Of a stretch of 64,000 nt of DNA, positions 1,399-25,893 are shown piece after piece. The notes beneath the pieces are model-generated. The model saw nothing but the letters and a program-made list of their open reading frames with translations. It did not search any database and was not told the DNA's origin. The position numbers and the translations under genes are program-made. Within the stretch, counting starts at the first letter, position 1. Each line of letters starts with the position of its first letter. The stretch is from Lingula anatina (lineage: Eukaryota > Animalia > Brachiopoda): NCBI GenBank assembly GCA_051362555.1, contig CM120648.1:19898587-19962586 (forward strand), given 5' to 3'.

Positions 1399-1988
1399 TT
1401 TTGTCTGTAGACTTGTCCTTCAAGAAATACATGCCTTCAAGAAATCGACGAAAACTGGAAGTGCATGTTTTTTGCACTGTTTTTCCTGTCATGCCCATCG
1501 TAAACACTGTGTTGTCAAGTAAAAGGAAGCGTCTGATACAAAGTATCAAATGCGGCATTGACGTGCTTGCTTGCGATGTGTTCAGTACACTTTGTTTACA
1601 CTGACAAGTCGAGGTCAGAAATGCACAATGTTTTTCTATGTAATTACGCAGTTTCAATTTTGATTAGTGAATTTTCTTTTATCTGCACGGTCATTTTCCG
1701 AACATATGATAAGCCACGAAATATTTCTCATCGGAAAATCACCCAGCAGCTTTCCAAGTACAAGCGAGTGACGTCATGATGCACTTCCGGTTTTCGTCAA
1801 GATCTTGAAGGGATTAGCGTTATGGTTTGCTGCACATTTAAAGCGGTCTGTCTCAACATGTACTTGACTGCTTGGATTGAAATTTACAGAACTTATTCTT
1901 CACATGATATCACACATATGTGCTTAATTTGAGAGCTTTAGCTGTTATATATTTTCTACAGTGCCCATTCAAAATTGAAAAAGAGCTA
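1329..1988 (+). repeat. Interspersed repeat; uninterrupted paralogue of 40263-40295 + 43749-44384
   Basis: Near-identical text (ttattgcatcaaaatgagaaa...(ttta)n...cccattcaaa.ttgaaaaa) at both places; a more diverged inverted copy lies at about 17441-17630. Confidence 0.85.
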
Positions 1989-2403
1989 TTTTCCGTCAAT
2001 TTTTCTTGAAGGGCAGGTCTACATTTGACAGATTTGCTGTCTTGTTTTATCTGGGTACAAACACGACAATTTAATTTTCTGTAAAATAAGTCTTCTTTAT
2101 ATGACTGAGGATTATTTTTCTTTTTGCCAAGGGATTCCACCTTCTATGTGTTTTTTGTTGGCCATTATACCTTATGTGCCTTGAAGACTGGACACTTGAT
2201 ACCAATTATACTTGATCTTATTAGACGCATTTTCGATGTAATTTATTTATTTTTATACAATATTTATAGACCAATATCCCAAAGTTATATGTTAAAATTT
2301 TGTAAAGAAATTCCTTTATCTTAGCCACATTTTTGTTTACTTTAAGATTGAGTCATTTTCTGCTAGAATGGTGTTTGATATTCTTCTTCTCTTTATTCTA
2401 CAG

Positions 2404-2436
2404 CCGCTCCACCTGCCTCTCCTGACAGAGCAGCAG
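2404..2436 (+). CDS. Roc-COR-caspase gene, 33-nt micro-exon (xAPPASPDRAA)
   Basis: Strong acceptor ttcttcttctctttattctacag and donor cag/gtaagt; phase 1-1, joins exon 3281 in frame (g+tg=Val). Confidence 0.65.
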
Positions 2437-3280
2437 GTAAGTAGTGCACATGTAGTAAAACAAGATTCCGTCTTTTGCTCATAATCTGCAAGAGTTGTTC
2501 TTAGCTTGTCGATTAAGTATGTGAGTTCCTGCATTCTTATTTTCATCAAACTGTATTAATAATGTTATATTAAAATTGACTATACCTTACAATTTTAATT
2601 GATTTTAATGAATGTTAAAACATTCAGTATTTATCACCCAGTTATGTTTTGAGCTTACTCACTTGTATTCAACAGAGAGGATACATTTTTAAGAAAAAAA
2701 TGTTTTTTTTTTTGGAAATTGCCGATAAACCTTCAGAAACAGATGAAAGCTTCTAATTTATTTGATAACTGTTTCACAAAGTTAATTGACACTAAATACA
2801 TTCAAATTTTGTCAATGATTACAATACTTTTTTATGCTAAAAAGTTTTATTTTAACTGCACTGTTTATTGTACAGTCCTTTTCAAAGGTGAAAGTGGATC
2901 TCATACCTCTGGGGAAGAAAACATGAGTAGTATAAGAATGTTGACGATATGTCGATGTATGAACAGTCCCTGACAAATGAAATAAATTAGATTGAAAGCA
3001 TGTCTATAAAGATTAAGGTCTAGTCTCTCACAAACCCCCCCCCCCCCCCCCCCCCCCTTGAAGAAGGCACATCAGCTGAAAACTCAATTGGGCGCTTGAT
3101 ACCAATTATACTTATTACATGCATTTTCAATCTAATTTATTTATTTTTATACAATATTTATACAATATACTGCGGGATTAATACGATGATTTGGATAAAT
3201 ATGCACGCATTGCAATACATAACAATATGCATTATGCTAAAATCATTTAGTTTGGACATAGCTTATTGTATTCATCGCAG

Positions 3281-3526
3281 TGGCAGAAAGGAACCATCTA
3301 GATGATATTGACAAGGAGCTATTGGAAAAAATTGAGAAAATTGCCCGAGGGGAAGATGTGGAGCCAGAGAAACAGGTCACAATTTGGGATTTTGCAGGAC
3401 AGGATGTCTACTACACCACGCACCAAACATTCCTCTCAGAGCGGATCATCTACTTGTTGGTATTCCGACTTGACCAGGACCTCGATGATAAAATCCGTGT
3501 ATACAGGGGAGAGAAGACGCTGAAAG
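3281..3526 (+). CDS. Roc-COR-caspase gene, Roc exon (G3/switch II)
   Basis: ttcatcgcag acceptor, aag/gtattg donor; VTIWDFAGQDVYYTTHQTFLSERIIYLLVF is the typical Roc DxxGQ..Y..TH..F signature. Confidence 0.92.
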
Positions 3527-3792
3527 GTATTGTTGAGCTTTATATCTTTACATGTATAAGCTACTCAGGGCCCTGATGTAAATAATGGCCTATCAACTGT
3601 GTGTAATTTCTTTATTAAAAGATCCACATTTTTAAATCTCTCTATTGCTCTTAATATATATATATATATATAACATTGAGATTTTAGTAGCGTTAATTTT
3701 AAATGGTTCCGATGAGTGTTTTGGATTTTAATATTCTAGTGATTTTAAGGATTTTAGTTATATTTACCATTGTAAGCCGCCCAATAAGAAAC

Positions 3793-3823
<31 letters not shown>

Positions 3824-3914
3824 TATTGGCGCTATTTTTTAGCAATGCTGAGGAGAAAACACTGATTAATATTCATCTTTGCATTAACATCAAGGCTTTG
3901 TATGTATTTTTCAG

Positions 3915-4039
3915 AGTTTATTATGTTTTGGTTAAACTCAATCCATATGCACACTATTGGAAAATTGAGGGAAGAAGACAAAAATGCCATGCCATACGTC
4001 TTGATTATTGGAACTCATAAGGACATGTTATGCCCACAG
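3915..4039 (+). CDS. Roc-COR-caspase gene, Roc exon (G4)
   Basis: tttttcag acceptor (phase 1), cag/gtgaaa donor (phase 0); EFIMFWLNSIH...VLIIGTHKD matches Roc WL.SI and GTHxD. Confidence 0.9.
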
Positions 4040-4083
4040 GTGAAAACGCTTTTCTTATCACAATTATTCAATTACTACCATAC

Positions 4084-7000
4084 TTATTGTACCACCAGCG
4101 TAGGCGCTGGCGGTACACATGGTTTTAGTCCCGACCCGTATGTTCCGCCGGTTCCGTCGGCGCCTGCGGCTCCGCCGCCAAGTCACCGTTACCGCTTCTC
4201 CTCCTAGACGGTAAGGGCCTCCATACCCATCTCTTCGATTTAGGTCACCTATAATCTCAACATGTCCACGTAAAATTTGGGCTTTGTCGGTATTGGGGTC
4301 TAGGTGTGGCACTTATTGCAATGCACCCTTGTCCAAAAATGGCAAAATTAAATGCATATTATCTCCCCTATGGAAGGAATTATGGGAAAAATTTCTACAG
4401 ACAGCTTTCCAAAAGTCATATGTGTAGATTTCAAATATGCCCTTGGATTTGACCTTTAGAGTTTCGAGTTACGCTGTATCCAAAAGTACATATTGGTGGT
4501 GAAAGCAAAATGTGCAGTACGGTAATGGATAATAAATTTTGAACTCCGGAAAAATAAAACATAAGGCTTGGCAAAGCAGACAACTTGTGGTCAAAAATGA
4601 TATTCTTTCATCAAATTTGAACATCTGGAACTTCAGAGCACCTCCCATTTCAAGAATTTTGACCAAAATGATGTTTTCTTTATTTAAATTAATCTTTTCT
4701 GTAGGAAATTTATGGCACATTATGGTAACTCAAAAATTATAACATTTAGTCCCTTATATCTCCAAAACTGGCAGAGATAGGTCCATAGTTTCTATTGAAG
4801 TTGAATAGGAAGTCATATACTGGCAATCTACATGTGACCTTAAAATTGACCTTTGACCTACTTTTCACCATGAACTAAACTTTGCAAATTTTGATTCCCT
4901 TTTATCTCCAAAACTGGCAGAGATAAGTCCATAGTTACTATTAACCTTTTTCATCTTTTGCGGAAATACGAAGTGCGCATGACAGGAACCGCGCGCCACA
5001 GGGGTCATGGTGGTCCTCTGCTGTTTCCAGCATGGCAATGCTAGGTGTAGATGATGTACAAGGTGCGCATATAAAAAGGTCGTATGAAGCGTGCATTGCT
5101 TTCTGTCAAACTAAAAAGGTGGCTGAAGCACAGAAATGCGTAAACTGTAGGCAAGAAACAGCTATTTGGACGGAGAATCAAGCAATTAAATATTTTCTTT
5201 CTCAGTTTAAATACGATGCGCTTTACAACTAGACTTCACCTAAGCGTCCGAGCCTTGGCTGCACTTTCAATAGTGATGACGAACTAAAACTACGGAGTTC
5301 TTTTAAATGCTTCCGATAATAAAGATATGCGAAAGAGACTCGTTATTTTTATATATATAAAATCAAAATAGCCAGTAGACTCGTACACAGCTTTCAAGAG
5401 TGTGGACAGGTGCGCAGGCCTACGTCTCCACAATTTTGTACATGTTGTATGCAAGCTGTGGCGATATCACCTCATGTACTGGCAGTGTCATTTCATTACG
5501 ATTTTTATGTCTTGTTTGAAGGATATCTTAAGAGATTTTTAAAGAGATAAAATGAAAAGATTTCCTGCATTGTTTGACTCGTAAATACTGTGTATACAGG
5601 TAAAACTGATACGCAGATCGTTCGTCGGTGAACTGATTAAATCGTTTGGTACCTGATAAGGCATCAGGTGTTACTTGTTCAATTGTTCGGTAAGGCGGGC
5701 GGCCACGACTACGACCTTTCTCTGTAATTAAAACCTTTTAAGTGTTAAATAGGTGAGACAGGAATTCTTGACTCTTTCCCAGATGATAATTAAAGTTTAC
5801 CGTGTCTTACTCTAGTATATGCACAAAATTTACGTCAGGTAAAAAATGTCAGCCTTTCGGTCTGACAAGTATGAAAATTTTGTCAATCTGAAACAAAAAC
5901 AAAATTATAGCAAGAGCCCAAATTATTTGATTTTTAAACATTTTTATGCGTATTTTCATCGTTTTCAATCACAGACAATTAAAACATTCAAATAAAGTGT
6001 TTCCCACACATTTCATACTTTTCAACTATCTAAGACAATTAAATATACGTAGGCCTACTTTAATACTAAGCATATTTGTATTACTTTACAAATACGTTGT
6101 TGGATTATGTTTATTATCCATTTTGTCTTTACCATACATGTATTATGTATGTGTAGCTTACAGAAAGGCTTTTCTGCATTTTTTGTAAAAATATGCCCAT
6201 TGAATTTTCCAATGCTCTTGTCATTGAGTTCAGAAATAAATAACTTTTTATTTCGCCGATAACGCGTTCAACAAGAGCCGATGTACTTTCTTCTTCGTAT
6301 GTCTCTGTTGATCTTGATAATATGAGCTCCGTTTGTACAAATCAGTAATACGTATACGGGACTGAATACATAATAATAAAAATTTTATTAACGTCTCACG
6401 TTAAAAAAATAGAACCCACCCTGCTAAGGGTTATTAGAGACTAAAACCTGTGATGGGCCTACAACATTTAAAATGATCACTTATCAATAAAACACACACA
6501 AAAAGGATATTACATACAAAACTTTTCAAACCTTCTCTTTGTTGTTACACAAAAAGTCGTAAAAGTTCTTGAATTTTTTGTAAGTAGAATCCCCGTGTAA
6601 AACTTCAAAGCTTTTACTTTCTTTTTCCATAATCTCATGCTTGAAGTCTTTTCTTAATTTTTAGGCCCCGGCCTATTCTTCAATTTTTTCTTCAAATCTT
6701 TATAATGTTTTTTTTCTCGCATTTTTTACCCCGAGTTCTATTTGCCGATAGTTCGTTATATCCGTTGTTTAACTAAGCATTTCTGTTTTTTATTAAAGCA
6801 CCGTTGATCTCCTAATATTATAGTTTTTCTTACCGCCTTCGAAATGTTCAGCGCAAACGCGGTGCCCTGCTTTTGATACAAACTTGCTATATTTTCCTTT
6901 CTTTCCACCATATTTTTCATTCTAACGGGTTTGTTGGGAACTTATTAAACCTCATGTGTCGATCTCGCTTACTGTTATTGTAGTAGCGGGACAAAAAGCA

Positions 7001-7970
7001 CGTAAACCCAGCCATGGTTTTAAGCACCGCTGTAAGTGTTTCGACGTAGCAGGGCTCCCCTACCCACAATGCAATTTCCATTTCCGGAAAAGATGAAAAA
7101 GGCTAATTGAACTTGAATAGGAAGTCATATACTGGCAATCTAAATGTGACCTTAAAATTAACCTTTAACCTACTTTTCACCATGAACTGAACTTTGCAAA
7201 TTTTGCTTCCCTTTTATCTCCAAAACTGGCAGAGATAGGTCCCTAGTTTCTATTGAACTTGAATAGGAAGTCATATACTGGCAATCTACATGTGACCTTA
7301 AAATTGACCTTTGACCTACTTTTCATCATGAACTGAACTTTGCAAATTTTGCTTCCCTTTTATCTCCAAAACTGGCAGAGATAGGTCCATAGTCTCTATT
7401 GAAGTTGAATAGGAAGGCATATACTGGCAATCTAAGAGTGACCTTAAAATTGACCTTTGACATACTTTTCACCATGAACTGAATTTTGCATATTTTGCTT
7501 CCCCTTTATCTCCAAAACTGGCAGAGATAGGTCCATAGTTACTATTGAACGTGAAAGGAAGTCATATACTGGCAATCTAAGTGTGACCTTTAAATTGACC
7601 TTTGACCTACTTATTATCAAGAACTGAACTCTGCTAATTTCTTTCTCTTTTAATTCCAAATCTGGCAGAGATAGGCGAATAGTTACTATTGAAGTTGAAT
7701 AGGAAGTCATATACTGGCAATTTACTGTGACCTTGGAATTGACCTTTGACCTACCTTACGATGAACTTAACTTTGATTGTACCATTTTTAGTTATATATA
7801 TATTTTTTGCATATTTTGAAAATTCTTGTTGATTGCATTTTTACAGCTTGTTAAGCACAAGACTGGTGGCTGTGTTCCTTATTTTGTGTATGTGGGGGTC
7901 TATACGAATGCGCTTGCTCCAGCTGGTGGTACAATATTCAGAGGCGATATCGCCTCTCTGATCCTCTAGT
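4084..7970 (+). mobile_element. Helentron-associated non-autonomous element (HINE family B) with 146-bp tandem core
   Basis: 5' hairpin gtaccaccagcg-tagg-cgctggcggtac, 3' subterminal IR gctggtggtacaata, terminal palindrome agaggcgatatcgcctct then ctagt; 146-bp units start at 4757, 4903, 7215, 7361, 7507. Confidence 0.75.
4942..7105. mobile_element. Non-autonomous TIR DNA transposon nested in a HINE B repeat unit
   Basis: TIRs taacctttttcatcttttgcggaaat / atttccggaaaagatgaaaaaggcta; host unit tactATtgaa is split with AT duplicated (4940-41, 7106-07). Confidence 0.75.
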
Positions 7971-8301
7971 TCTATGTATAATTTGTATCCCTTCAACCAT
8001 ATCACGATTCCTGACGAGTGACTTAATTATTTAGAAACTTTTCACTATGTGACTATTTGTGGATGGCATGATTTAATGTTGGGGGAAAAGGGTGTCCCTT
8101 GCCCACTGACTCCATCCTAATTTTATAGGTTCATTGCAGCACACCCATTTTTCAACTTGAACGAAGTGGACTATATCATATACACATATATACATGTACA
8201 TACACACACCCTGGTAGATGTTTTCTTTCGCTCTGACACTTAAGCATTATTATATAGTAGTGAAAAACTACAAAAGAATCTTAACATCTTTTCATTCATA
8301 G

Positions 8302-9472
8302 GGCGAGGTTGAAAAGATTTTTGATAAACTCAAGAAGTGTCTCGATGACAAGCAGGTACTCAAGGACCACGTCTATCGATATTTTGCCATAAGCAACTTG
8401 GCCGAAGACGATGAGGAGTTTGCTGAAATAAAAAGAGCGATCGAAGATTTGTGCGGTTATAGCAGCGACAGTGAGGCTACCGTTCAACATCTTCCAGTGA
8501 GTTGGATTAAATTGGAAATGAATTTGACAAAGAAGAGTGAAGAAACACCCATCATAAGTATTGAAAAATTGATGGAAATGGCGCAAAGGGTAGGACTCCC
8601 TGATGGAGAATTACAAGAAAAATTCATTCCTTACCATCACCGTCAAGGTGACATCCTACACTTTAAAATTGATGGACTGGAAAGTGTCGTCATAATAGAT
8701 CCACTTTGGTTAGCAGTTGTGTTTTCTGCCATCATGACCCCGGCCAGCATTCACTCTGGATGCAGTCGCGGCCATGTCCTGAAAGATGAGCTTGAAAGAG
8801 GAGTCCTAAAAGAGGAGGTATTTGATGAGTATCTAAAAGAATTCAAGATGGCCGAAAAAAAGACTGAAATCATTCGACTTATGCTGCATTTCGACTTGAT
8901 GTTAGAAATATCCCAATCAGTTGAAAACCCTCTGCCTGGACATGGAAAAAGAAGATTCCTCGTACCCAGTATGCTGGTATCAAATAACAGTGCGAATGAG
9001 ACAAATCCGCAGAAATATTTGCTTATCGCATTCCCTCATATTCTGTTTCCTACTGGGTTATTTCATCGTCTGACCATCCGTCTTCTAAGGAAGTATAAAG
9101 CTCAGCAATATAAAAATAACATCCCAGTTGTCGGGTTTGACAGCGCCTCCTTCCGCCTGGCTGATAAACAGTCGGTGCTGCATCTCGCCATTGAAAATAA
9201 GGCCATGAAGTTGTTTATAACTAACGCCACTGGACTCCCTCCAAAGACTCACGTGTATTCAGAAGCAAGAAAAACAGTTGAAAACGAGTTGACAGTCCTT
9301 CGGGATACATACTGCCCCAGGATGCATTTTGGCTACAGCATCAGGTTAACAAATGACGGACCCAATATTCCAATAAATGCACATGACGTCCAAACAGCCG
9401 ATTCCATATGTGCGTATGTAGAGAACTCTGAAGTGTCGGTAGATTTAAGGCCATATCGCGTTTGGTTTTCTG
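8302..9472 (+). CDS. Roc-COR-caspase gene, Roc C-terminus (G5 region) plus COR domain exon
   Basis: ttttcattcatag acceptor (phase 0), ctg/gtaagc donor (phase 1); 390 open codons with COR motifs LPVSWIKLE, HRQGDILHF, VIIDPLWL, LMLHFDL, FLVPSML, FPTGLFHRL. Confidence 0.92.
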
Positions 9473-10141
9473 GTAAGCAGTTTGAAATATCATGTAGTGT
9501 TGTTGTGAATAGACATTAGGCCCTATGCTATTTTAACATAGAACATGCATTCCGTGTTAATTGGTTCACAGATCTTAACATTTTAAAAGATCCCTGATTA
9601 CACAGCATGTAATATCTGAAACCAGATACCATTAGAAAATTTAGGTTTGATTAGTTTTAATTTTCAAAATAATTTATCGGGAAAAATATATTAAGGATAT
9701 TTCTGTTTTGTACATATATTTTTGAAAATATTGATTTTTTACACAAACACTAATGACATACAATGTTAGTTATTTCTTATGAATACTCAATTGTATATGC
9801 AATAGACTAAAAAATGCTCAATTAGAAATTAATGGGAAAATTTATATTAATCTACCCTTCTTAAATGAACTATGTACTTGTTTGTAACATTTTTATTAGA
9901 AACAAAAGGCAAGATATCGTATTCAGATTTTACTCAAACGTTGTGAATTAGCAACCTGTGATAACAAGTCATTAGAAACATGTCAGTGAGAGATAAACCC
10001 AAAATTAACAATCATTTCGGAATGACACTTGGATTTTGAAAGGAAAAGTACGGCGTATGATAGGACATAAAGTATTTTGATGGGGCCCTAGAGGCCAAGT
10101 ACCAATATATAATATATATTAGGCCAATCTTACCATTTTAG

Positions 10142-10191
10142 CAGCCCCAGAGAATCAAGACCGTTGTGCAGCCAAGTGTCCTGAAAACGAG
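10142..10191 (+). CDS. Roc-COR-caspase gene, linker exon (AAPENQDRCAAKCPENE) with GC donor
   Basis: ttttag(cag) tandem acceptor; gag/GCaagt donor; converts phase 1 to the phase 0 needed by the caspase exon at 10514. Confidence 0.7.
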
Positions 10192-10234
10192 GCAAGTTAT
10201 GAGCTTTTAAATACGTTTGTGTCTAAGTACTGCG

Positions 10235-10322
10235 CAGCAAACACAGAACGTTATTATAACGTTACCATATCATATGTCCAAAAACATTTTGGTAACATTA
10301 TAGGAACGTTCTGTGTTTGCTG
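10235..10322. mobile_element. Tiny MITE-like inverted-repeat element
   Basis: cagcaaacacagaacgtt ... aacgttctgtgtttgctg inverted ends. Confidence 0.6.
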
Positions 10323-10513
10323 ACCATTATCCTCACTTGCACAAGTTTTAGTAAGACCATGAAATTAAATGTACTCGTATATACACAATCGTAAGAAAAA
10401 TTGGATACACTTAGGCATAAATGCGCACTTTTCACTCTGTTACACTTGCTATACGACCTCCGATATTTCTAATGATAAATTTCACATAAAGACAGTGTAT
10501 GTGTGCGTTTCAG

Positions 10514-10684
10514 TACAAGAACGATTCCGAACCGAGAGGTCGTGCACTCATTATCAACAACAAGACATTTGCCGTGGACTGGCTTCCAGAACGTGATGGT
10601 ACCGACGTAGATGTTTTTGCCTTGAGGAAACTATTCCGTTACCTCCATTATGAGACAGACGTTATCAGTAACCTGACTGCACAT
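10514..10684 (+). CDS. Roc-COR-caspase gene, caspase p20 exon 1
   Basis: tttcag acceptor, cat/gtgagt donor; YKNDSEPRGRALIINNKTF...ERDGTDVDVFALRKLFRYLHY...NLTAH is the canonical caspase large-subunit start. Confidence 0.92.
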
Positions 10685-10703
10685 GTGAGTTCATTAATAA
10701 GAT

Positions 10704-13529
10704 CCCAGACAGCCTCAGTGATCTGGCCCACGTCTGGCCCAGATCTGGCAACGTCTGGCAATGTCTGGCAAAAGGTATGGCCCACGTATGGCTTGCCACA
10801 TGTGGGCCAGATGTGGCAATGTTTGGGCCAGATCTGGCCCAGACATTGCCACATCTGGCCCAGTCCACATTTGCTCATATGGCCAGATGTCGGCCCAGAT
10901 CTGGCAATATCTGGCAAATGTATGGCATGCCAGATGTGGGCCAGATGTGGGCCAGATCATATTCAAATGGGCCAGATTAGGGCCAGACATGGACCACATA
11001 TGGCCCAGAATGTTTTTTTTTCTTTTTTTTAATTATTTTTAATTATTCAATAAGATTACTATAAAAAAGACATACAAGATTCAAGATTCAAGTATTTATT
11101 CTGTGCTAAAACCCTAAACAAAATTATTACACATTATATAACCTTGCTGGCAACTAACATGTAACAAATTAAGGGTCACTCCTTGTCTTTTTGTACAAAA
11201 CAATGTATATTTGAAAAAAAAAAAATCTACACTGCAAAAAGGTAAATATACAGACACTTAACAGGAGGAAATGTCACTTACATACATGTAAAGAAAACAG
11301 TTATAACAACAATTTTTTTTTCAACACAAAGCTGCTCATCGAATCTGAATTAACACAAATTACAAAAATTGTAATTAATTATGCATGTACATGGGGGAGG
11401 GGTTTGAGGGGGAAATATTTTTGCACACATTGTCATTTTTAAACTAATTCAAACATATCATTAATAATAATAATCACTAATGAATATAGTTTTGTAATGA
11501 ATAAATCTTGAATAATGAATGAAAAAACATTGTTTTTTAGATGATGGTGAGTTATAACAAAATTATAAATAACCATGCAGTAACTGTAATTCAACTTGCA
11601 TGCTGGCTACAGTACTGTACATACATGTAAATTCTGAAAAAAAAATGTATACTCCAGCACAGATATAGATGTACAATTAAAAGAGAATTACATGTGCACA
11701 AAAACAAACCCCAGTATCAATGCTTTTGAATTAAATCACATCATGAATCAAATCACTCAATGAATTGAACCAGTTTGCAATGTTTGCGCTTTTTTTAAAT
11801 CCATAACACTAAGAAATGATACATCCGGCTCCTTGACAAGCTTATAATTATTAATGGAATCAACAATATGGAACAAGTAACTCTACCAAGTTAACAACAG
11901 TTCATTCAAATGTCAAGTCAAAACACAACATCCCTTCCTTTCTTGGACAGAAACGGTCCTTTCAAAACATGTTTATTGACAGTTCAGTCTTTAAAATGTC
12001 CTTTCAAACATTTGCAGAATAGCATATGAACTCCAACTTTTATTCCTTAAACCACACTGAAAATTCTCAAAACTTATCAACTCATATCAAATCCCATGTC
12101 CTTTCACTACTACTGGTCTCTTCCTTTACGTCACATTCAAATGTTCCCTTCACTTTTAAAGGTTTCTCAGATGTGTATGAATAATACTGTTTGTTTTCTA
12201 GTCCTCCACAAGAGCCACATTTATTTTTCTTGGAGTTCAGCATTCTCCATGTATTTTCATCAATGATATTACAATATGCACCTGAATCTGGTAATACACT
12301 GAGATTAACACCGCCTCTATTTCCTCCATGTCTTCTGTGTATATTGCATTGGTTCCCACACCAAATGTATATGCACTCCTGGATTATCATGTTCAAAGCT
12401 GTCATTTACATGAATAATAGTTTCAGTTTTGCAGACTTTTGCAAAGTGATCCAACGTTCCATGTTTTCTCAGTCAGGGAGTTTCTACTTCGTTTTTCATG
12501 TCTAAACTCGTAATGTTTAGACTGGCTTGGTTTGTCAAATGACTTCGGTTTCATCATACTCACAGTTTCTGGTGTTCCAATTTCATTCAAAGCGTTAACT
12601 GTCTAATGTATATTCATGTTTCTAACCTGTGTTTGGGAGAGTCCTGAAAATATCTTGTACGCCTGTCCCTGCTGAATACAACATAAGCCCGCGTCTCCTC
12701 TGTCATGTATTTTTAATTTTCTATCTTTGTTCATTATTCATGCCGTCCGTTGGTTTTGAAAAGATCAATCTTTTCCGTTAGCGAAGAGGTTAAAACTGTC
12801 TAGCCATCGAGTCGAGCGTGACCATGTCTCCGGACTTCCGTACGGTTCGAATTCCGTAATTTCACATTTTTCCTCCATTTTTTCAAAGAAAGTTGGCTCA
12901 CAGTTTTGCACTAGTGTTAATCCTCGTTGCCAGTGTTGATGCCTTCGAAATAAATCGCATCACGAATCAAATCACTCAACGAATTGTATCAGTTTGATAC
13001 GCTTGTGCTTTTTTCATATCCATAACTCTAAGAAACGCTACATCCGGGTCCTTGACCGGCTTAGCATAAAAAGCGGAATTTTACAACAGCGGAACGAGTA
13101 GTTCAAAAAAAGTTTTAAAACAGTGAATTCATTCAAATGTCAAGTCAAATTAAACAAATAGCACACTTATGAGGGGACTTTGAAGAAAAGAGAGAGAGAT
13201 AAATAAAATCAAAATTTAACAAATGATGTCAGTTTAATGCATTCAGCTCACTGGTCAATAAAAAATAAATAAATAGAAAATAAAAATTGAAAATGAAAGT
13301 ACCATATCTGGCCCAAGTCTGGGCAGCATCTGGCAAAATGTGGCATAAATGCCAGACTTTGCCAGACTTGGCCCAGATCTGGCAAGTGTCTGGCAAAATG
13401 TGGCATAAATGCCAGACTTTGCCAGACTTGGCCCAGATCTGGCAAGTGTCTGGCAAAATCTGGCCCAGATATTGCCAGACGTTGCCAGATCTGGGCCAGA
13501 CGTGGGCCAGATTACTGAGGCTGTCTGGG
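10704..13529. mobile_element. CACTA/EnSpm-like non-autonomous element (CCC...GGG, 2-bp TSD AT)
   Basis: TIRs cccagacagcctcagt / actgaggctgtctggg, AT on both sides, arrays of 11-bp subterminal repeats (atctggcccag-type). Confidence 0.85.
11737..13150 (-). mobile_element. Deleted Gypsy-type LTR retrotransposon remnant inside the CACTA element
   Basis: Diverged direct repeats about 11737-11922 and 12955-13150; PBS-like tggcaacgagg (minus, 12922-12932); gag-like RRRGLMLYSAGTGVQDIF; protease-like VLPDSGAYCNII in ORF 12082-12405. Confidence 0.7.
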
Positions 13530-13833
13530 ATCATGGTGTGTTTGTAATAAAACGAACATCGTGAAAGCCAAATGGCTTTTAGGTTTCAAAGACTAACATA
13601 CTTTTTGGTGATATCTCAATATATTTATCAGTGACACAAAGATGATACAATTGATACTTGAACCTTTTGGTTCAAAACAGGTGTTGTCAAACAAACTTTT
13701 CGGTCACATTTTATTATGTTTATCTATTTCACTGCAATATATTTTTCTACTAAAATGAAGCTTTTCACTCGTTTCTGTTCATTGCATGTATTTGTATTTA
13801 TATGAGAGATGTACGGTACACTGAATAGTTATA

Positions 13834-16021
13834 CAACATTGGTCAAAAAGGTTGTCCCACCCCTATTTCCATGTACTTTAAAAACCAACCCCATAAAAAC
13901 CTGGGCCAAATCCCCCATCTTGTTTAAGAAGAATTGGACAAGTCTTTTCAATTTTATAGACATTTCTTTACATCTGTAGAAATCACAGTGAAACAGTCGA
14001 ATCGAGGGGTACCTCTTATAAATTTAACTAAATGGTATAAAATGTGTATATTTTCACCACTGTTTTGTTTTTATGTACAGACACAGATGTGTCTGTACAT
14101 ATTGCCATCACCTGCGTCTGTCGTCGCCGATGGCGATGCCGATGGCGATGCCGATGGCGATGGCGATGCCGGCGCCTTGCACTTTCCTTGTGAACACAAT
14201 AAGTGGAGGGCAGTTTTACTTTTTGGCTTTATATTTACAGAGCTGATGAATATTCATAAAACGCAGGTCAAGTTCGAAAATCAGCATGATCGGGCCATTA
14301 TTGTAGAAGTTATGCTGTTTTTTCACTTTTCAGCATATATGCAACACTGTAAACACATTTCAACAAAAACCGATAGGCCTGTTGTCATGAAACTCACAGG
14401 AAAAATTGATCTTACTAAAACGCAGGTCATGTTCAAAAATTGGCATGATCGGGCCACTATTTTAGTAGTTATGCTTTTTTTTCTTTTTTCAGCATATATG
14501 CAACACTGTAAACACAATATAAGAAAAACAGATAGGCCAATTGTCATTTAACTCACAGGAGTGGTCAATCCTGCTAAAACGCAGGTTAAGTTCAAAAATC
14601 AGCATAATCAGGCCATTAATTTAGAAGTTATGCTGTTTTTTACATTTCCTTAGATTCAATTCTTAGGCATGTTAACAGTTTCATTATTTAATTAATAAGA
14701 TATGTAAAAGTGTTTTTTTGACATTTCCTGCATCTTTACAACATTGTTAGTTGATTTTGTAAAAATGATGTTAAACTTGTTATTGTGTATTGTGTAATAA
14801 AGTTTCAAAAATGGAAATAAACTCATATCATTGCAGTTTGTCAGATTGAATCATTCACTATGTTCAGAATCTCAGAATGGAAGAAATTGGACATTTAACA
14901 CTATTCTATTGATATTTTTCCCATCTCATCAATTTTCTTAGTTGGTCATATAAAAATGGCAGTAAACTGTTAATTTTGTTTTATGTTAAAAAAGTGTTAA
15001 AAATGGAAATAAACCCATTTCAGAAAAGTGCTGTCTTGTTTACATTTTGGCATTTTCAAGTTGTGGCTTTGAAGTTCCATGGGCCTGAAGACCTTTGCTA
15101 GTCACATTTTCTGAATATCCATGATACTAATATTTTATTCTTAAAAATTGATGGTCATTATGTTGTTAAACATTATGTAATATTGCATCAAAATTTGAAA
15201 AAACCTATTTTGAGCACTGCTCCCATGATGACCATTTGAGAAAAACCATGTCACTTACTGTTCTCAAACAGTACAGTAAATATGTACAGATGTGTCTGTA
15301 CATATTGCCATCACCTGCGTCTGTCGTCGCCGTCATCGCCGTTGCCGGCACCTTGCACTTTCATTGTAAACACGATAAGCGGAAGGCAGTTTTACTTTTG
15401 GGCTTTATATTTAAAGAGCTGATGAATATTCATAAAACGCAGGTCAAGTTCGAAAATCAGCATGATTGGGCCATTATTGTAGAAGTTATGCTTTTTTCAA
15501 CATATATGCAACACTGTAAACACATTTCAAGGAAAACCAATAGGCCTGTTGTCGTGAAACTCTAAGGAGTAATCCATCTTACTAAAATGGAGGTCAAGTT
15601 CGAAAATCGGCATGCAGCCTGAGTTGGAAAAGCAGTCTAATTGGCTTCTTATTCTGGAAGTTATACATTTTCAAAGTGTGAACTTGAACTCTCATGGGCC
15701 TGAAGCCTTATGCTTGTTACACATTTTACTTTCATTGGTATTACCTGTTGAGCATAATTAAAATTTGATGTTGAATTTACAGTTTAACATAATGTACTTT
15801 TGCATCAGAATTGACAGTAGCCTATTTTGTGCATAGTAATTTCCTGCTTTTTGTCTGTACATTTGACAGCTTTGCTGCCTTGTTTTTTTTAACCATGAAT
15901 CATCTTAGACACGGTATCCGTAATAAAAAGCACTATTTCTAACAGTTCACAGCTGTGAGGTGATCATTTGTAAATAAAAGTACATGGAAATGGGGGTGGG
16001 ACAACCTTTTGACCAATGTTG
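13834..16021. mobile_element. Tc1/mariner-type non-autonomous element (TA TSD) hosting HINE A
   Basis: ta-caacattggtcaaaaaggttgtcccacccc...ggggtgggacaaccttttgaccaatgttg-ta. Confidence 0.8.
14068..15883 (+). mobile_element. HINE family A (head-to-tail double copy), 159-bp tandem core
   Basis: 5' hairpin tatgtacagacaca-ga-tgtgtctgtacata, gccgat/gtcgcc microsatellite, 159-bp units (14261, 14420, 14579), second head at about 15281, 3' gtctgtacat + cagc-ttt-gctg stem, T-rich flanks. Confidence 0.8.
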
Positions 16022-16248
16022 TATACAAACAGACATGGCGTACAATCTACAAATAAACCACCATATGTCCGTCCTCGGTGGCTACTGCCTTTCACATTCT
16101 CTGTTAGCGTCAAGTATGAATTGATGCTTTACGCTGTCGTTGATAACCCAATTCCGTACGTACCACGTCTCTGCAGTCATTGCATGCTATTTCGTTTGAA
16201 GTACACTATGTTTTTATGTCACTTCTTCTTTTATTTTAATGTGTAAAG

Positions 16249-16468
16249 GATATGAAGGAAGAAATAAAACAAGAAAGTCAAAGAGACGATCACAAGATCT
16301 ACGATTCTTTCATCTTGTTTCTACTGAGCCATGGTACCGAGGGTGCTGTTTATGGAACGGATGGCTATCCTTTACCCTTCAAATATATCAAAGCCATTTT
16401 GAATAACAGGAACTGTCTTGGCCTGTCGGGCAAACCGAAAATGATATTTATTCAGGCTTGCCAGGGAA
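16249..16468 (+). CDS. Roc-COR-caspase gene, caspase catalytic exon
   Basis: aag acceptor (phase 0), gaa/gtaagt donor (phase 1); DSFILFLLSHGTEGAVYGTDG...NCLGLSGKPKMIFIQACQG with catalytic His and Cys. Confidence 0.95.
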
Positions 16469-16731
16469 GTAAGTTATGGAATGTATTACACAAGCTTGAA
16501 TACCTGCGATGAAAATAACATGCAAAATTATTAAACAAATGTATTGAGATATTAAACTGTATTAACAGTTTGTCTCCTTTAAATTATATTCAGCCACACG
16601 AAATGAATGACACTTAGTATTATGTAATTGTTTAATTAGTTAATACTGATATCAATTCTAACTTATATGTAAACATGTAATCCACATAAGGGTGTATGGG
16701 GTATTTCATTTTTTTTTCCATATTCGCCCAG

Positions 16732-16902
16732 AGATGTTGGACAGTGGGACACTGCTGGATGGACAAACAGTTCAACAACCACAGCAAGCACCACCTGCAG
16801 CAAACCTTGGCGATGAGGTATCCGATGCGCCACACGAGATTCCAAAGCCATCCAATGATCCGACGATGTCCGATTTTCTCGAAGTCCATGCGACTTCACC
16901 AG
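16732..16902 (+). CDS. Roc-COR-caspase gene, inter-subunit linker and p10 start
   Basis: T-tract + cccag acceptor, cag/gtactt donor, phase 1-1; ...LLDG...DEVSDA...PTMSDFLEVHATSP. Confidence 0.88.
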
Positions 16903-18118
16903 GTACTTTAACCGTGTTTCTTTGTATGCCATTTTACTTAGGCCTTACAAATGTGTATTTCATCAGAAAAAAAAATCAAAATGATAAGGTGCACGTGGTG
17001 ATGCTGGGATTATGGCATTTTGCCTCAGGTAGAAGATGGTGTGCATTTTGTGGTCTTTCGACATATTGTGGAGAACTGTATTATACGTGTATACTTTAAA
17101 ATGCTCACTACATTACTGCACCAGTAAATACTGAAAATGGTGCATGTATTTTTATACAGTATCAAATAAAATATATGTGCCAAATTTAATTAAAATTTAC
17201 GTACATTTTTGCCATAATGCTTTTAAAAATGCGTTCAAGATCACTACGAAAAACGAAAGTGTGTCGAGACGTTACCTAATTGTATTTGGGAAGCTGTCAG
17301 ACGATTTCTTTCAAAAAAAGACTTTGTAGCTTATGCAAATGTTGAGAAAAAAACATGCCGATTATGGAAAATTCAATTATCAAAATTTAAACTACGTAAT
17401 TCGACAGATTTTAATTTAATTTAATTTAAAAATCGCTATCGTGTATTTCTGACATTGAATTCTCAGTGTGCACAAAGTGTAGGCATCGAAGGCATTCATG
17501 AATGTCGACACGTTTGATTCTTTGAATCAGACGCTTCATGTTACTTGATAGCGCAGAGGCATGCCAGGGAAAACAGAGGAAGAAAAACAAGTTCTGGTTT
17601 TTCTTGATTGAAGGCTTCGATTCGTTGAAGGGCAATTCTGTATAGCCTGGTTTCCAAAGATCGTGTGGCAGGCATATCAGCAAAACAAAATGCATCGCCA
17701 AGGACCCGAATGCCATGGCAAAATGTTTTAAGTTTACTTTGTTATTTTGATACAAATAAGCTTCCGGTTGACATAGATTTGACTGGTCTCCAACTTTCCA
17801 TGCTGCACTGTGCCTGACCGAAAAAAAAAAAAAAAAAGCCTTAAAATGAGTAGTGATTCAGTGTTCCAATGATGCCTGCGATGGCTAGAAATGTGACCCG
17901 TATTATTGGCCTTTTGGAGATCATTTCAGGTCGGTTCACTGTAACACTATCGGCAAATATACTTTACTAATAGTTCCTCGATCTATGCGATTTATGAAAT
18001 TTGCTTTTCCGCACTCTCAGTGAGACTAAGTACTGTTATATTAACAAAATAAAAATAAACAGTACTGTTGCATCTACGAGTAAATAATACGTTAAGGCTT
18101 CAGTATTTTCTGTTTCAG

Positions 18119-18228
18119 ATTACGTATCTTGGCGACACCCGGGAAAGGGAACATGGTTTGTTCAATCCATTGTCGATACATTTTATCGTGAAGCACACAA
18201 ATATGACGTTTTACAAATGTTGGTGAAT
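18119..18228 (+). CDS. Roc-COR-caspase gene, caspase p10 exon
   Basis: ttttctgtttcag acceptor, aat/gtaagt donor; DYVSWRHPGKGTWFVQSIVDTFYREAHKYDVLQMLVN (absent from the ORF track). Confidence 0.92.
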
Positions 18229-18450
18229 GTAAGTACTGTAATAACATGAACTACATTATTTTACATTGAAAGTGTGTTAAATTCATAAGAACACCAATCA
18301 AATATAAAACATAGCTACCAGAAGAAGTGACATGTCGTAAGAGGTGACTTATGTAAATACAGTCCAACATGCACAGACTTTTTAAGAACCAGCGAAATGC
18401 TCTTCTGTATATTTTGACAGTTTAATCAGAACTGTTCAATTCATGTAATA

Positions 18451-19623
18451 TTTTTATGTACAGACACAGATGTGTCTGTACATATTGCCATCACCTGCGT
18501 CTGTCGTCGCCGTCGCCGTCGCCGATCATGTCGCCGTCGCCGTGCACTTTCAGCGTTAACACCATAAGTGGAAGACAGTTTTACTTTTTGGCTTTATATT
18601 TACAGAGCTGATGAATATTCATAAAACACAGGTCAAGTTCGAAAATCAGCATGATCGGGCCATTATTGTAGAATTTATGCTGTTTTTTCACTTTTCAGCA
18701 TATATGCAACACTGTTAACACATTTCAAGGAAAACTGATAGGCCTGTTGTCATGAAACTCTAAGGAGTAATCAATCTTACTAAAAAGCAGATCAAGTTCG
18801 AAAATCGGCATGATCGGGCCACTATTTTAGTAGTTATGCTGTTTTTTCACTTTTCAGCATATATGCAACACTGTTAACACATTTCAAGGAAAACCCATAG
18901 GCCTGTTGTAATGAAACTCACAGGAGTAATCAATCTTACTAAAACGCAGGTCAAGTTCGAAAATCAGCATAATCGGACCATTATTTTATAAGTTATGCTG
19001 TTTTTTCACATTTCCTCAGATTCAATTCTTAGGCATGTTAACAGTCTCATTATTTAATTAATAAGATATGTAAAAGTGTTTGTTTGACATTTCCTGCATC
19101 TTTACAACATTGTTAGTTGATTACGTAAAAATGATGGTAAACTTGTAATCGTGTATTGTGTAATAAGGTGTCAAAAATGGAAATAAACTCATATCATTGC
19201 AGTTTGTAAGATTCAATCATTCACTATGTTCAGAAACTCAGAATGGAGGAAATTGGACATTTGACACTGTTGATATTTTTCACATCTCATCAATTTTCTT
19301 AGTTGATCATATAAAAATGGCAGTAAACTGTTAATTTTGTTTTATGTTAAAAAAGTGTTAAAAATGGAAATAATCCCATTTCAGAATAGTGCTGTCTTGT
19401 TCTTATTCTGGCACTTTCAAAGTGTGAACTCTCATGGGCCTGAAGCCTTATGCTTGTTTCACATTTTACTTACATTGGTATTACCTGTTGAGCATAACTA
19501 AAATTTGATGTTGAATTTGCAGGTAAGCATAATGTACTTTTGTATCAGAATTGACAGTAGCCTATTTTGTGCATTGTTATTTTCTGCTTTTTGTCTGTAC
19601 ATTTGACAGCTTTGCTGCCTTGT
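18451..19623 (+). mobile_element. HINE family A, complete copy
   Basis: Both diagnostic ends present; 159-bp core units. Confidence 0.8.
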
Positions 19624-19633
19624 ATTTCACCAG

Positions 19634-19736
19634 GTCAATCACGCGATCTCTCAAAAGCAAACAACAATGGGCAATAAACAGGCACCAGAGATAGTTACCA
19701 GCTTACGAAAGAAAGTTTTCTTCAACATAACTCCAG
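19634..19736 (+). CDS. Roc-COR-caspase gene, caspase p10 final exon
   Basis: ttcaccag acceptor (phase 0), cag/gtaagc donor (phase 1); VNHAISQKQTTMGNKQAPEIVTSLRKKVFF fits the caspase KQ.P...S.L.K...F tail. Confidence 0.92.
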
Positions 19737-20870
19737 GTAAGCAAAAAGAATCACATCTTCCCTAGGTGTATTCGGCCGAATAATAAAGACTATTGAACGC
19801 CATTCACGCAAAAAATGCAGAAGTCAATTCAACATTCTATCTGCACTATTTAACAGCCAAAACCTACTTCAACTATCTAAAGTTAATTCTACTAAATTAG
19901 TTTTTGTCATTTTAATCATTCGTCAAAATCTAACAATCAATAAACGATTCAAAAGTCAGTTACTGCAACTCAACAATCAGTCACCGCAACTCAACAATGT
20001 ATTTTTGCGTGAATGGCGTGAATGCATGGAACGCCATTCACGCAAAAATTCAGAAGTCAATTCAACAATCTACCGGCACTATTTAACAGCCAAAACCTAC
20101 TTTAACTATCTAAACTTACTTCTACTAAATTAGTTGTGGTCATTTTAATCATTCGTCAAAATCTAACAGTCAATAAACGATTCAAAAGTCAGTTACCGCA
20201 ACTCAACAATGCATTTTTTGCGTGAATGGCGCGAATGCATGGTGCGCCATTCACGCAAAAAATGCAGACGTCAACTCAACAATCAGTTGCCGTAACTCGA
20301 CAATCAGTTGTCGCAAACGGTCATTCGCAGACTTAACACCAGATGGCGTGCGCGCACCGTCAGCGATCTGAAACGTCCTTGACCTTTTCCATGTTTTCAA
20401 TTCCGCATATTATGCGCGTACATGTGGTTCATCGTGTTCGTATTGTCATGATATAGTTAAGTATATAATAGTATGATGTGATTGAACGCAATGCTACTAT
20501 TATATACTATTATATAGTTAAGTATATAATAGTAGCATTGCGTTCAATCACATCATACTGAAATTAGATATGGCAATGAACCACATGTAGTTCCTACTCG
20601 CATAATATGCGGAATAGCACAGGTCTCAAACTACTGCGCATGCGCGAAAAGTACGCTGTTTGAAATAAACAAATGCATTTATTTTCTCTTCACAAATAGG
20701 GTAATTCCTTTCGCATTTATAGTGTTATATGTGGCACCAAGGGGATTTTCCACCCCTCCCCCACTCTTGATTAATAAAATTATCCATCGGGAGAAAAGAA
20801 AATTATATTGCAAAATACATTAAAAAGCGTAGAAAGGTTAATTGCAGATAATGCTGTGAGGATATTCTAG

Positions 20871-22645: not shown

Positions 22646-23087
22646 ATTCTAGACGGGGGCGAACTCGGCCAACATAAAAATTTTAACTTTGTCTTACGAT
22701 TTTGGAGCGCCTGTTCTAATTTTTAAAAGCGAGGCAATGGAACCAAACAATACGAATCTCAAAAAAATTGATATTTTTTAATAGAGGTTATAGCCGGGCG
22801 TACATCAAAAGGCGGCTCGTTTATTATTGTGATATGTAATAATAATTTATGTAAAAGATACGATATAATAGGTTCTTGTCGATTAGCTTTATTGATTTTT
22901 TAAGTATTTGGAGACTAAAAACACAATTTAAGCTGAATGGTTTCAAATCGAGGCACCACGTATTTTAATACTGTTAAAACCATGTAAAAGGTCAAGGACG
23001 TTTCAGATCGCTGACGGTGCGTGCGCGCCATCTGGTGTTAAGTCCGCGAATGACCGTTTGCGACAACTGATTGTTGAGTTGCTGTAA

Positions 23088-23310
23088 AGCCCCCTTTACA
23101 CTGGACGGCGTCCTTTCTGCGTCCAGCAGTCCGGTCCCATTTGAGAGTTAAAAAATTATAATATTATACATGTCGACAACTGGCCGATCATTGAGCATTC
23201 ATTCTGATACAAAATTAATGCTCGTGCCTCCTTTTTAAGACCACAGCGATGCCAAATTTCATGGTCGCAGAAAGGAAGCAGAAAGGACGCCGTCCAGTGT
23301 AAAGGGGGTA
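23088..23310. mobile_element. PIF/Harbinger-type MITE (TAA TSD)
   Basis: cccctttacactggacggcgtcc ... ggacgccgtccagtgtaaagggg; TAA both sides; second copy at 37725-37936. Confidence 0.85.
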
Positions 23311-23849
23311 TAACTGATTGTTGAGTTGCGATAACTGATTGTTGAGTTGCGGTAACTGACTTTTGAATCGTTTATTGATTGTTAGATTTTGACGAATGAT
23401 TAAAATGACCAAAACTAATTTAGTAGAATTAAGTTTAGATAGTTAAAGTAGGTTTTGGTTGTTAAATAGTGCTGATAGATTGTTGAATTGACCTTTGCAT
23501 TTTTTGCGTGAATGGCGTTCCATAAAAGACTCGAGATCAAAAGTAAGCAAAAACAACGAACCTGGAACGTGTTAAGGTACAAACAACGCTGCCAGTCCTG
23601 CTGAAGATCTCATCCTTTTATCAAATGTCTCAAATCTCCAACCCAGTTGCAGACCCCACCTACAAAATTGTTTCCCAACTTCAATAAATTATTCCCAACT
23701 AAAGCTGGAACTTCAAGGTTATGATCTTCATAAGGTTATTTTTCTCATCAATGTTATTTCTATGTGTTTCCACCTAAATCGCACCACAACTCCCAGCATT
23801 CACACACCTCACATTCATTTATCAGTACTTACTCCTCCTGAAGTGATTT

Positions 23850-24150
23850 GGGACTACATTGAATCAGGTTATCCTTTGGGCGGATTGCTGGCACAATTTA
23901 GTCTCCTTCTTACAGATTTCAGATGTTACATGTTGTCCCTAAATTTGATCTTCACAAAACTCGTGTAATTTACGATCTTTTTTTTTTATCCCAACCTGGT
24001 CTCGGTTGATTCTAACATTCCAAGAGAGTTCTCTGTGGCACAGTACGACTTCATTGATGCTGTTATCGCACATGTCCAACATTTTGTTCGTGGTGCTCTT
24101 TTAGGTATATCTTATATTCAAGATGTTTTCCACATTTTACCGATTATCAA
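23850..24150 (+). pseudogene. Degenerate DIRS/Ngaro-type reverse transcriptase fragment
   Basis: Broken translation VVPKFDLHKTRVIYDL...SVDSNIPREFSVAQYDFIDAVIAHVQHFVRGALLGISYIQDVFHILPI parallels the DIRS/Ngaro RT N-terminal pattern. Confidence 0.6.
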
Positions 24151-25771
24151 CTGCGTCCATCCCTTAAAGGCCCAGTGGGTCACCTGTGACCTACACGTTT
24201 GACACGTCCCCACCCACACCACACAAAATGAATCCACTTCATTTTGCCATTTCCTATTCCTTATGTACTAGTTTATCCTTGTTGACCAATAAGAAACTAG
24301 ATCATTATCCTTCACTTACTCAAATATGTCTGCCTCCATAAGAAGGAGTAAATGCTATTGTCTAGTGGGTTTTTATGTGTCTGTATTGTCATCTCAAGGT
24401 AAATAATAATTTCAATATTCTGGCTTTTCATTATAAATACAATAGTCTTAAACCACACAGAAATGTTTTATACAGTTGTTAGCTATGCTTCCGGGTTTAA
24501 ATTTATTTTTTATGTTGTTATTGTAATAAAAAGAGGTTTGTGATATCTTGAAACTTAGTCATTTGTTTACCTCTAAAGCCCAGTGGGTCACCGGTGGAAC
24601 ATAACCAAAAACTAGGTCAATGTTGCCCAAAACATTTTTTTCAACATTTATTGAAAAATATGCTTATTACAACCCTATTACCTAGGTATTAAACTTTTCA
24701 TGCAAGAAAAACATGTCTTGGGCCTTTAAGGGTTTTTCCTGGAATGATCTGTTTTATTATGAGAAATGTTTGCCAATAGGTGCAAGTTGTTCGTGCCAGA
24801 TTTTTTAATCTATGAGTAAAGCTATGCAATGGATAATGTTGGAGAGATTTCATGATTCGGCCATGTCCCGTATAATAGATGATATCTGTTTCATTGGACC
24901 TCAAAATTCCAAGAAGTGTCAGGTTGATTTTTTCTTGTGTTATGACATGGATAAACGTTTCCATTAACGCAGTAAAAACCTTTACTCTGACCACTTTTCT
25001 TTATTTTATCTCATTGAAATAGATATAATACAAATGAAACCTTGGATAGGCTTTTAGGGTTTAATCTGAAATAAAATTTCATGCATCGGTCAAATGTGTC
25101 TAATTTGGTTCAGTTTTGTTGTGGGATATGGTTGATTGGGCGAGTAATGACCCACCCACTTATTGTCCATGTGGTTCAAGTATGGTGATTTTGATGATCA
25201 AGGTAACTGCTTACTCCCTTGTTTCATTAAGTTATCTGCTATTCGAGGTTCTCTGTTCGAACCAGTAATCTCATTGTGCAACCTTAAATTACTCCTTATG
25301 TGCCCCCTAGTCATGCGATTCCCAGATTATAACTTACTTTGATGTGTTTAGGATCTTATTATTTTTTTACTATTATCTTGGTTGCACCCATTAAATTATA
25401 TTATTATTATTTATATTATGACATTTATATAGCATGGGGTGTATGATAATCCCCCATTTTTGTAAGTTTATATCTCATTATTCTTCGTCATTAATAAATG
25501 ACAATTTTCAGTCATGTGGACTTTATGCTATGTACCTTTGAGCAAAAAGCTGAGCTTTGTTGTGTTGGTGTGATTATTTGGCTACATGAATAGAATATTT
25601 CATCCACAGAGGTGTCTCTTGGCTGTAAGATATATGAAATAATATTCAAATAAATCTGAACTGAAAAAAATTAATTAATTCTATAAAACGCAATATTTTG
25701 AAGAAACATGTTGTTGTAAAGAACAATTTTCTTGCTGCTGTCATATCACCTGGTAATTGTTTGTGTTCTAG

Positions 25772-25893
25772 GTGAAGAAGAGCGAGTCCAAGACCAAAAC
25801 AAAAGACGGCTGTCGACGGTTTCATGCACAGAGAGCCCGCAAACGAAGTACACACACTGGACAATAGAAGTGTCACCCCCTAAATCAGAATAA
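25772..25893 (+). CDS. Roc-COR-caspase gene, candidate terminal exon (GEEERVQDQNKRRLSTVS...PPKSE*)
   Basis: ttgtttgtgttctag acceptor, phase 1 matches donor at 19736; 40 open codons to TAA TAA with AATAAA at 25892-97. No domain homology supports it. Confidence 0.55.

Follow-up and report, generated by a model that had tools for sequence, protein, structure and literature searches.

Roco proteins have been sorted into three topology groups, comprising the LRR-Roc-COR proteins, those with an added kinase, and the DAPK proteins (PMC6337361; this paper and the others below are cited from excerpts). Roc-COR modules with other effectors have also appeared in print. Kaur et al. 2021 predict bacterial LRR-Roc-COR-effector defence proteins, caspase-like effectors included, the defence role being itself a prediction of that paper, and their supplement gives the sponge protein XP_019855546.1 as APGTPase+COR+DED+TRADDN+CASPASE (PMC8195603). 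In Aplysia, Roc-COR occurs with TIR or Death domains (PMC9334734). Horkan et al. 2024 describe a single caspase of Owenia fusiformis, CAH1787638.1, whose pro-domain is a ROC; they place it within caspase-Y and propose that it interacts with DAPK-type kinases (PMC11463336). The gene considered here comes from the brachiopod Lingula anatina and encodes, very probably on a single chain, a Roc GTPase domain, a COR domain and a caspase. It lies at positions 2404-25893 of a stretch of 64,000 nucleotides (hereafter the window; GenBank assembly GCA_051362555.1, contig CM120648.1, positions 19,898,587 to 19,962,586 of the forward strand).

The window consists of animal DNA that is rich in adenine and thymine and loaded with repeats. 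Within it, eleven plus-strand exons join into one open frame of 839 codons and a stop, in agreement with the first-pass annotation of the locus, which had been made from the sequence alone and counted about 840 codons in compatible phases. All acceptors have AG and nine of the ten donors have GT, with GC at the remaining donor (10192). This is only the 3' part of the gene; the start codon and the P-loop are absent from the window, and the gene begins upstream. None of 5000 random AG..GT/GC chains with the same exon lengths approached 839 codons (median 117 amino acids, maximum 521), a weak control given that the real chain was picked after inspection of the sequence.

The first exon in the window (2404..2436) is a micro-exon with AG/GT ends from a low-complexity insert in Roc, and the residues at its boundary with exon 2 match the Lingula RefSeq model P0007 (XP_023930482.1) at 8 of 8 positions. 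Exons 2 (3281..3526) and 3 (3915..4039) continue Roc and contain the GTPase motifs G3 (WDFAGQ, 3385-3402) and G4 (GTHKD, 4010-4024), respectively, while exon 4 (8302..9472) supplies the end of Roc, COR-A and COR-B. Exon 5 (10142..10191), which has the GC donor, encodes the flexible linker between COR and the caspase. Caspase p20 starts in exon 6 (10514..10684), with the S1 arginine codon at 10592-10594, and exon 7 (16249..16468) contains the codons for the catalytic His (16330-16332) and Cys (16459-16461, within QACQG). The intersubunit linker, with the candidate self-cleavage residue Asp703, and the start of p10 are found in exon 8 (16732..16902); p10 continues in exon 9 (18119..18228), which has the SWR arginine codon (18133-18135), and ends in exon 10 (19634..19736), identical to the RefSeq model P0123 (XP_013405061.1) at 34 of 34 positions. 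Exon 11 (25772..25893), the least secure of the set, encodes the C-terminal tail and the stop. At the boundary of exons 10 and 11, a further model, P0006 (XP_013381226.2), matches at 8 of 8 positions, whereas P0123 runs into intron 10 instead. A Pfam scan of eight exon pieces detected Roc in exon 2 (E 1.7e-8), COR-A in exon 4 (E 1.7e-21) and Peptidase_C14 in exons 6 (E 1.2e-9), 7 (E 3.3e-18) and 9 (E 1.2e-5); three of the eight pieces gave no match, and no kinase domain was detected after COR.

Four Lingula RNA sequencing runs (X1, X4, X5 and X7) were mapped on window positions 1-20000, giving 15 listed joint rows and 109 further rows that were not listed. Five of the nine introns in that stretch are among them, mostly in runs X4 and X5: 3526>3915 (41 reads in X4 and 23 in X5), 4039>8302 (38 and 11), 10191>10514 (35 and 19; printed two places to the left and assigned by reading), 16902>18119 (20 and 16, with one more in X1) and 18228>19634 (30 and 35, with one more in X1). 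All five have the strand expected for plus-strand RNA, exons 3 and 9 have such joints at both ends, and a sixth intron, 16468>16732, is supported as a variant exon start (14 reads in X4). The estimated depth of exon 7 is about 18-26. The joints 2436>3281, 9472>10142 and 10684>16249 are not among the joint rows listed, and for run X7 the rows listed include none of the gene's joints; the last joint, 19736>25772, and exon 11 are beyond the mapped stretch. The reads connect Roc with the COR exon, and the linker with p20, and the exon chain is confirmed as a real, expressed, spliced gene. Public annotation has this gene in pieces, and it is the window together with the 4039>8302 reads that joins Roc to the COR exon.

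The predicted protein proceeds from Roc (G3, G4) directly into a complete COR, as indicated both by the Pfam Roc and COR-A matches and by the 4039>8302 joint, and then through a linker of 26 residues into caspase p20/p10. This order, and an intact protease at its end, had been proposed in the first pass and are borne out by Pfam, motifs and fold matches. An AlphaFold model of P0123 (mean pLDDT 87.5, pTM 0.60) has two bodies and a short disordered linker, with a pLDDT < 50 for the COR-caspase linker. Residues 1-321 of this model match the C. tepidum COR structure 3dpt (Z 19.4, root-mean-square deviation 3.4, 274 residues aligned), including the C-terminal half that forms the dimer in the C. tepidum Roco, and the rest matches caspase chains at Z 34-36; caspase-9 chains occupy ranks 2-5 among the PDB sequence matches. 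A two-copy complex prediction for the COR region of P0123, in which the alignment went unused, scored 0.00, which weighs neither for nor against a dimer. Between switch I and G3, Roc contains a long disordered insert of short repeated units (2404-2436 in the window; residues ~412-476 of P0007), the number of which differs among paralogs, and which could be a regulatory or bait segment.

The catalytic dyad is intact (His626 in SHG, Cys669 in QACxG), and Arg568, Gln667 and Arg734, which we take to be the residues of the Asp-specific (S1) pocket, are present. Motifs and modelled fold together support an intact protease, predicted to cleave after Asp. The intersubunit loop is disordered in the model, and Asp703 in it, followed by an Ala, is a likely self-cleavage site. 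The COR-caspase linker has a single Asp, and since the next residue is Arg, the enzyme probably stays tethered after self-cleavage. There is no CARD or DED before p20; COR and the 26-residue linker are found there instead, and the caspase itself falls in a CARD-type clade (see below), so that the early suggestion of COR standing in the place of a prodomain holds.

The closest proteins to the window gene are Lingula anatina RefSeq models. P0006, which is entered with a blank pro-domain in the table of Horkan et al. (PMC11463336), and P0123 both begin within exon 4 and are ~95% identical from there onward. P0007 covers the other end of the gene, with identities of 81/82 in exon 2 and 42/42 in exon 3 and with intron 3 flanks in common. 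This nearest 5' record further carries an NHL propeller (TRIM2/3/71-like fold), having NHL repeats and no LRR, and an intact P-loop (G1) and switch I Thr, the counterparts of which would lie upstream of the window. Near-identity to P0007 suggests that the window gene has the same NHL domain and P-loop; a translated search of window positions 1-2403 did not find the upstream exons of P0007. On the scaffold of the HEPN-ending paralog P0001 there is also a partial caspase of the window type, P0121 (XP_023933245.1), with QADQG in place of QACQG. Its position beside a Roc-COR-HEPN gene is a sign of tandem copies and decay.

The searches led to a set of 271 proteins, in which the following counts are lower bounds because the best 150 matches were used. 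At least 14 of the 271 match both the Roc-COR and the caspase half of P0002, at least 10 of them in the order of the window and at least 4 with the caspase first. Window-order records with a named source are from Lingula (five), Owenia, Branchiostoma and Exaiptasia, and all are gene predictions; linkers in relatives range from ~25 to 80 residues. The architecture proposed in the first pass is thus present in other metazoans too. No catalytic or GTPase motif is broken in the window or in most of the fused relatives, which, with the open frames and the expression, lends indirect support to the purifying selection suggested earlier. When nine fused proteins served as a profile, the search gave 19 matches, none of them a new fusion; known members were missed too, so it is uninformative on rarity. 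In the ESM Atlas, no cluster with Roc/COR and Peptidase_C14 was among the matches listed, all of which were below 0.9.

Other domain orders were also observed. The caspase is ahead of Roc in P0155 (Potamilus), P0220 (Antedon) and P0229 (Branchiostoma); P0155 has a seemingly degenerate catalytic site and a Death domain at its end, and P0229 ends in an OTU protease. P0273 (Exaiptasia XP_020902336.1) is a single predicted chain of HEPN_DZIP3 - AAA-type NTPase - Roc - COR - caspase. A Lingula protein, P0128 (XP_013407220.1), and an Owenia protein, P0129 (CAH1786849.1), are colinear as Bcl-2-like - Roc - COR - caspase with 40% identity across 1351 columns, which argues for retention since the brachiopod-annelid split. 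The Bcl-2 match has an E of 5e-23 in P0129 and of 0.003, under the curated cut-off, in P0128. No mention of a Bcl-2-Roc-COR-caspase protein was found in the literature consulted.

The larger FastTree runs comprised 145 caspase and 185 Roc-COR domains, from which 34 and 31, respectively, were hand-picked for the final trees; these were built under LG+G4 and contain several long branches. In them, the window caspase is found in a starred clade (95/86) with the Lingula PARP-caspase and caspase-RIG-I fusions and with the remaining fusions of Lingula and Owenia, and CARD caspase-Y proteins form the sister group. Membership of caspase-Y follows from a starred 96/93 clade with the PARP-caspase cluster and XP_013405490.1, which is Casp.Y3 in the table of Horkan et al. 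(PMC11463336). By its place in these trees, the window caspase belongs to the CARD-type caspase-Y clade, and the company of PARP-caspase and caspase-RIG-I suggests that this type of caspase has been grafted repeatedly onto sensors. The fused caspase of Branchiostoma groups with CARD caspases of amphioxus (100/100), while that of Exaiptasia has a long branch in another part of the tree. The approximately unbiased test rejects one common origin of the fusions, both for the caspase domains (p-AU 1e-53; 8 of 34 rows) and, in a quick tree, for Roc-COR (p-AU 3e-5; 9 of 31 rows). One origin of the Lingula and Owenia fused caspases is compatible with the data (p 0.225 and 0.187). The trees point to the fusion having arisen within animals.

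Six Lingula paralogs are homologous up to the last codons of exon 4 and no further, and beyond this point close paralogs carry a caspase, HEPN_DZIP3 or nothing (P0004); the effectors after COR among Lingula paralogs comprise caspase, HEPN_DZIP3, Death and none. The Owenia paralog closest to that animal's fused gene has a weak C-terminal Death-domain match (E 0.00036). A quartet test with two caspase and two HEPN copies gave 38 informative sites at residues 16-318 that group by Roc type and 8 sites at 438-517 that group by effector, with 2 of the third pattern in between, and a topology switch as good was found in 0 of 10000 permutations. The mosaic breakpoint among paralogs is at ~8851-9213 in exon 4, inside COR, so COR-B appears to travel with its effector. 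These results point to recombination that moves COR-B together with the effector, for which parallel selection on COR-B is the alternative.

It is possible that the protein is a unit of sensor, switch and protease. The NHL propeller predicted at the N-terminus would be the signal sensor, and the resting state would be a GTP-bound monomer with an idle caspase. Sensor engagement and hydrolysis would favour a dimer formed through COR-B, in which the two tethered caspase domains would meet and become active, with self-cleavage near Asp703 and the enzyme remaining tethered. By analogy, GTP binding and hydrolysis with a change between monomer and dimer are predicted, and an immune or cell-death role may be inferred. 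The bacterial model Roco is mainly a monomer with GTP and a dimer when nucleotide-free, the C. tepidum dimer is made by the C-terminal half of COR, and GTP inhibits DAPK1 (PMC6337361); for caspase-9, homodimerisation is a proposed part of the activation (PMC5410359). In the description of the protease as GTP-switched, the sign of the switch is probably the reverse of what the words imply. We lean slightly towards this sensor-switch-protease reading.

A number of observations weigh against it. The key joint between COR and the caspase, 9472>10142, and 10684>16249 are two of those without reads among the joint rows listed. The estimated depth of exon 4 is 10-17, 2-3 times below that of the Roc exons (41-52) and exons 5-6 (26-53), all of these being rough arithmetic on binned coverage; it can be explained by paralogs sharing parts of the gene, and equally by caspase-only transcripts. 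Expression was seen mainly in two of the four runs, both from one study, the supporting RefSeq records are predictions, and Horkan et al. caution on chimeric gene models for such caspases (PMC11463336). The HEPN-ending P0001 is also near-identical in exons 2-3 (78/82 and 41/42), so the full NHL-Roc-COR-caspase layout is tentative and P0007 may instead come from the 5' portion of a copy that has HEPN at its end. The variable linker length suggests that tight geometric coupling is not conserved. The first of these points would suit two transcription units, in which exon 4 would be the last of a Roc-COR gene and a caspase with a short prodomain would have its own start; 9472>10142 is unlisted, and the caspase exons are seemingly deeper than exon 4. 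However, the bin 9339-10005 has a low depth that fits the last 134 bases of exon 4 alone (estimates 21 and 6), with no sign of read-through to the stop at 9519, where the first-pass annotation had looked for a possible end of the Roc-COR part. Exon 5 has no start codon, its residues match P0006 and P0123 at 16 of 17 positions, and the exon 4/5 boundary matches both at 8 of 8. COR and caspase are on one chain in these two RefSeq models and in eight other records, and the same layout in several animal groups is not a slip of one gene-caller. Any working caspase would also need 10684>16249, which is equally unlisted, so the non-listing of 9472>10142 says little. Of the joints in the RNA check suggested at the outset, 10191>10514 was seen and 9472>10142 was not among the joint rows listed, and the COR-caspase joint is drawn from the two ~95%-identical models. 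Two separate units are very improbable, and we consider it highly probable that Roc-COR and the caspase are on one chain.

Even on one chain, Roc-COR might instead be a platform for localisation or clustering, or a GTP-on switch, with crowding, or a protease acting upstream, as the trigger of the caspase. LRRK2 and DAPK1 show membrane recruitment and intramolecular GTP control (PMC6337361), the linker varies in length, and in Potamilus, Antedon and Branchiostoma the caspase is N-terminal to Roc, where COR cannot replace a prodomain. Such a platform is nevertheless rather unlikely, given that a complete COR-B co-segregates with effector type and that the window linker is merely ~26 residues long. 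Alternatively, the fusion could be a by-product of exon shuffling in an expanding family, the halves being functionally uncoupled on the same chain. The homology shared by paralogs extends to the close of exon 4 and stops there, close paralogs differ in effector and P0004 has none, the trees demand many gains or losses, and the broken caspase copy P0121 (QADQG) adjoins a HEPN paralog. Against this, the window and most fused relatives have all catalytic and GTPase motifs in working form by sequence, and the Lingula-Owenia pair, colinear with 40% identity over 1351 columns, implies retention since the phyla split. A shuffling by-product is decidedly improbable.

Elsewhere in the window, intron 3 contains a transposon-like insertion of ~3.9 kb (4085..7970, no strand assigned), with 15-nucleotide perfect inverted repeats (4085-4099 / 7922-7936) and internal tandem repeats. 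The P0007 sequence passes from the start of intron 3 into window position 7971, and the insertion is therefore apparently absent from the P0007 locus. RNA coverage over the insertion is deep and repeat-derived, and loose ends of it lie at 4084 and 7971; related copies are strongly transcribed. Opposite-strand RNA at 11340-13340 in intron 6 probably stems from repeats of which other copies exist. Beyond the gene, 27418-28196 and 33589-34369 form an inverted duplicate (781 nucleotides, 99.6% identity), and a plus-strand exon for a fibrinogen C-terminal domain is found at 38726-39358 (Pfam E 1.5e-21). This domain family is often tied to invertebrate pattern recognition.

Apaf-1 is lacking in brachiopods, annelids and molluscs (PMC11463336), and for the activation of caspase-Y enzymes in these animals a caspase hard-wired to Roc-COR offers a possible adaptor-free route. 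Its cleavage would report dimerisation, providing a readout for the debate in the LRRK2 field on which nucleotide state of Roc-COR is dimeric and active. Because the layout is found in several phyla, and because close paralogs have HEPN where others have the caspase, a design predicted mainly for bacteria now extends to animals. Tentatively, and with some doubt, these genes may represent an overlooked NLR-like class in marine invertebrates, with Roc-COR in place of a STAND ATPase and with sensor and effector cassettes (caspase, HEPN, Death) that recombine. In such a class, caspases would have become adaptor-free, nucleotide-gated death proteases through three or more independent recruitments, and the ancient brachiopod-annelid Bcl-2-like-Roc-COR-caspase may replace the lost Apaf-1 apoptosome.

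In the literature consulted, no functional study of a Roc-COR-caspase was found, nor any account of its recurrence or effector swapping in animals; Gerdol et al. 2018, on Lingula immunity, may describe these genes. The first-pass annotation knew of no characterised animal protein of this architecture, a view that stands as regards function, with no functional report in the passages seen, and is overstated as regards the layout, already in print for Owenia (PMC11463336) and for bacteria and a sponge (PMC8195603). What is new comprises the probable NHL sensor, the repeated independent origin in animals, the cassette exchange and the Bcl-2-like-Roc-COR-caspase.

Owenia CAH1787638.1, compared by description, is like the window gene an animal caspase-Y in which Roc replaces CARD. 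However, in the excerpts of Horkan et al. it is a single species-specific case, and COR (0 whole-word matches), dimerisation and effector swapping do not enter the account. The AP-GTPase-COR counter-invader proteins of Kaur et al. share the arrangement of repeat sensor - Roc - COR - variable effector, and paralogs in one genome differ in their effectors. In the parts of the source available, those systems are bacterial with LRR sensors, and the 'CASPASE' row examined is a CHAT protein, whereas the window gene is a spliced animal gene in which COR is followed at once by a metazoan p20/p10 caspase, DED and TRADD-N being absent, and the sensor is likely an NHL propeller. The window protein would work like the bacterial counter-invader Roco systems and is not a member of them. 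In the same animal, the caspase-RIG-I-like receptors and PARP-caspase (PMC8998645, PMC11463336) carry caspases of the same clade on a sensor or enzyme; the partner there is an RNA helicase or a PARP, and in the window gene it is a GTPase. The initiator caspases-9, -2 and -8 have the catalytic dyad, the Asp-pocket residues and a long intersubunit linker in common with the window caspase, which differs in having no CARD or DED and for which a separate adaptor platform would be unnecessary. With LRRK1/2, DAPK1, MFHAS1 and the C. tepidum Roco the protein shares the Roc-COR tandem and the COR fold, and in LRRK2 the enzyme likewise comes right after COR. In contrast to these, its output is a protease, no kinase or LRR was found, and it is outside the three topology groups as given in the excerpts of PMC6337361. 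The window protein is both a Roco protein and a caspase-Y.

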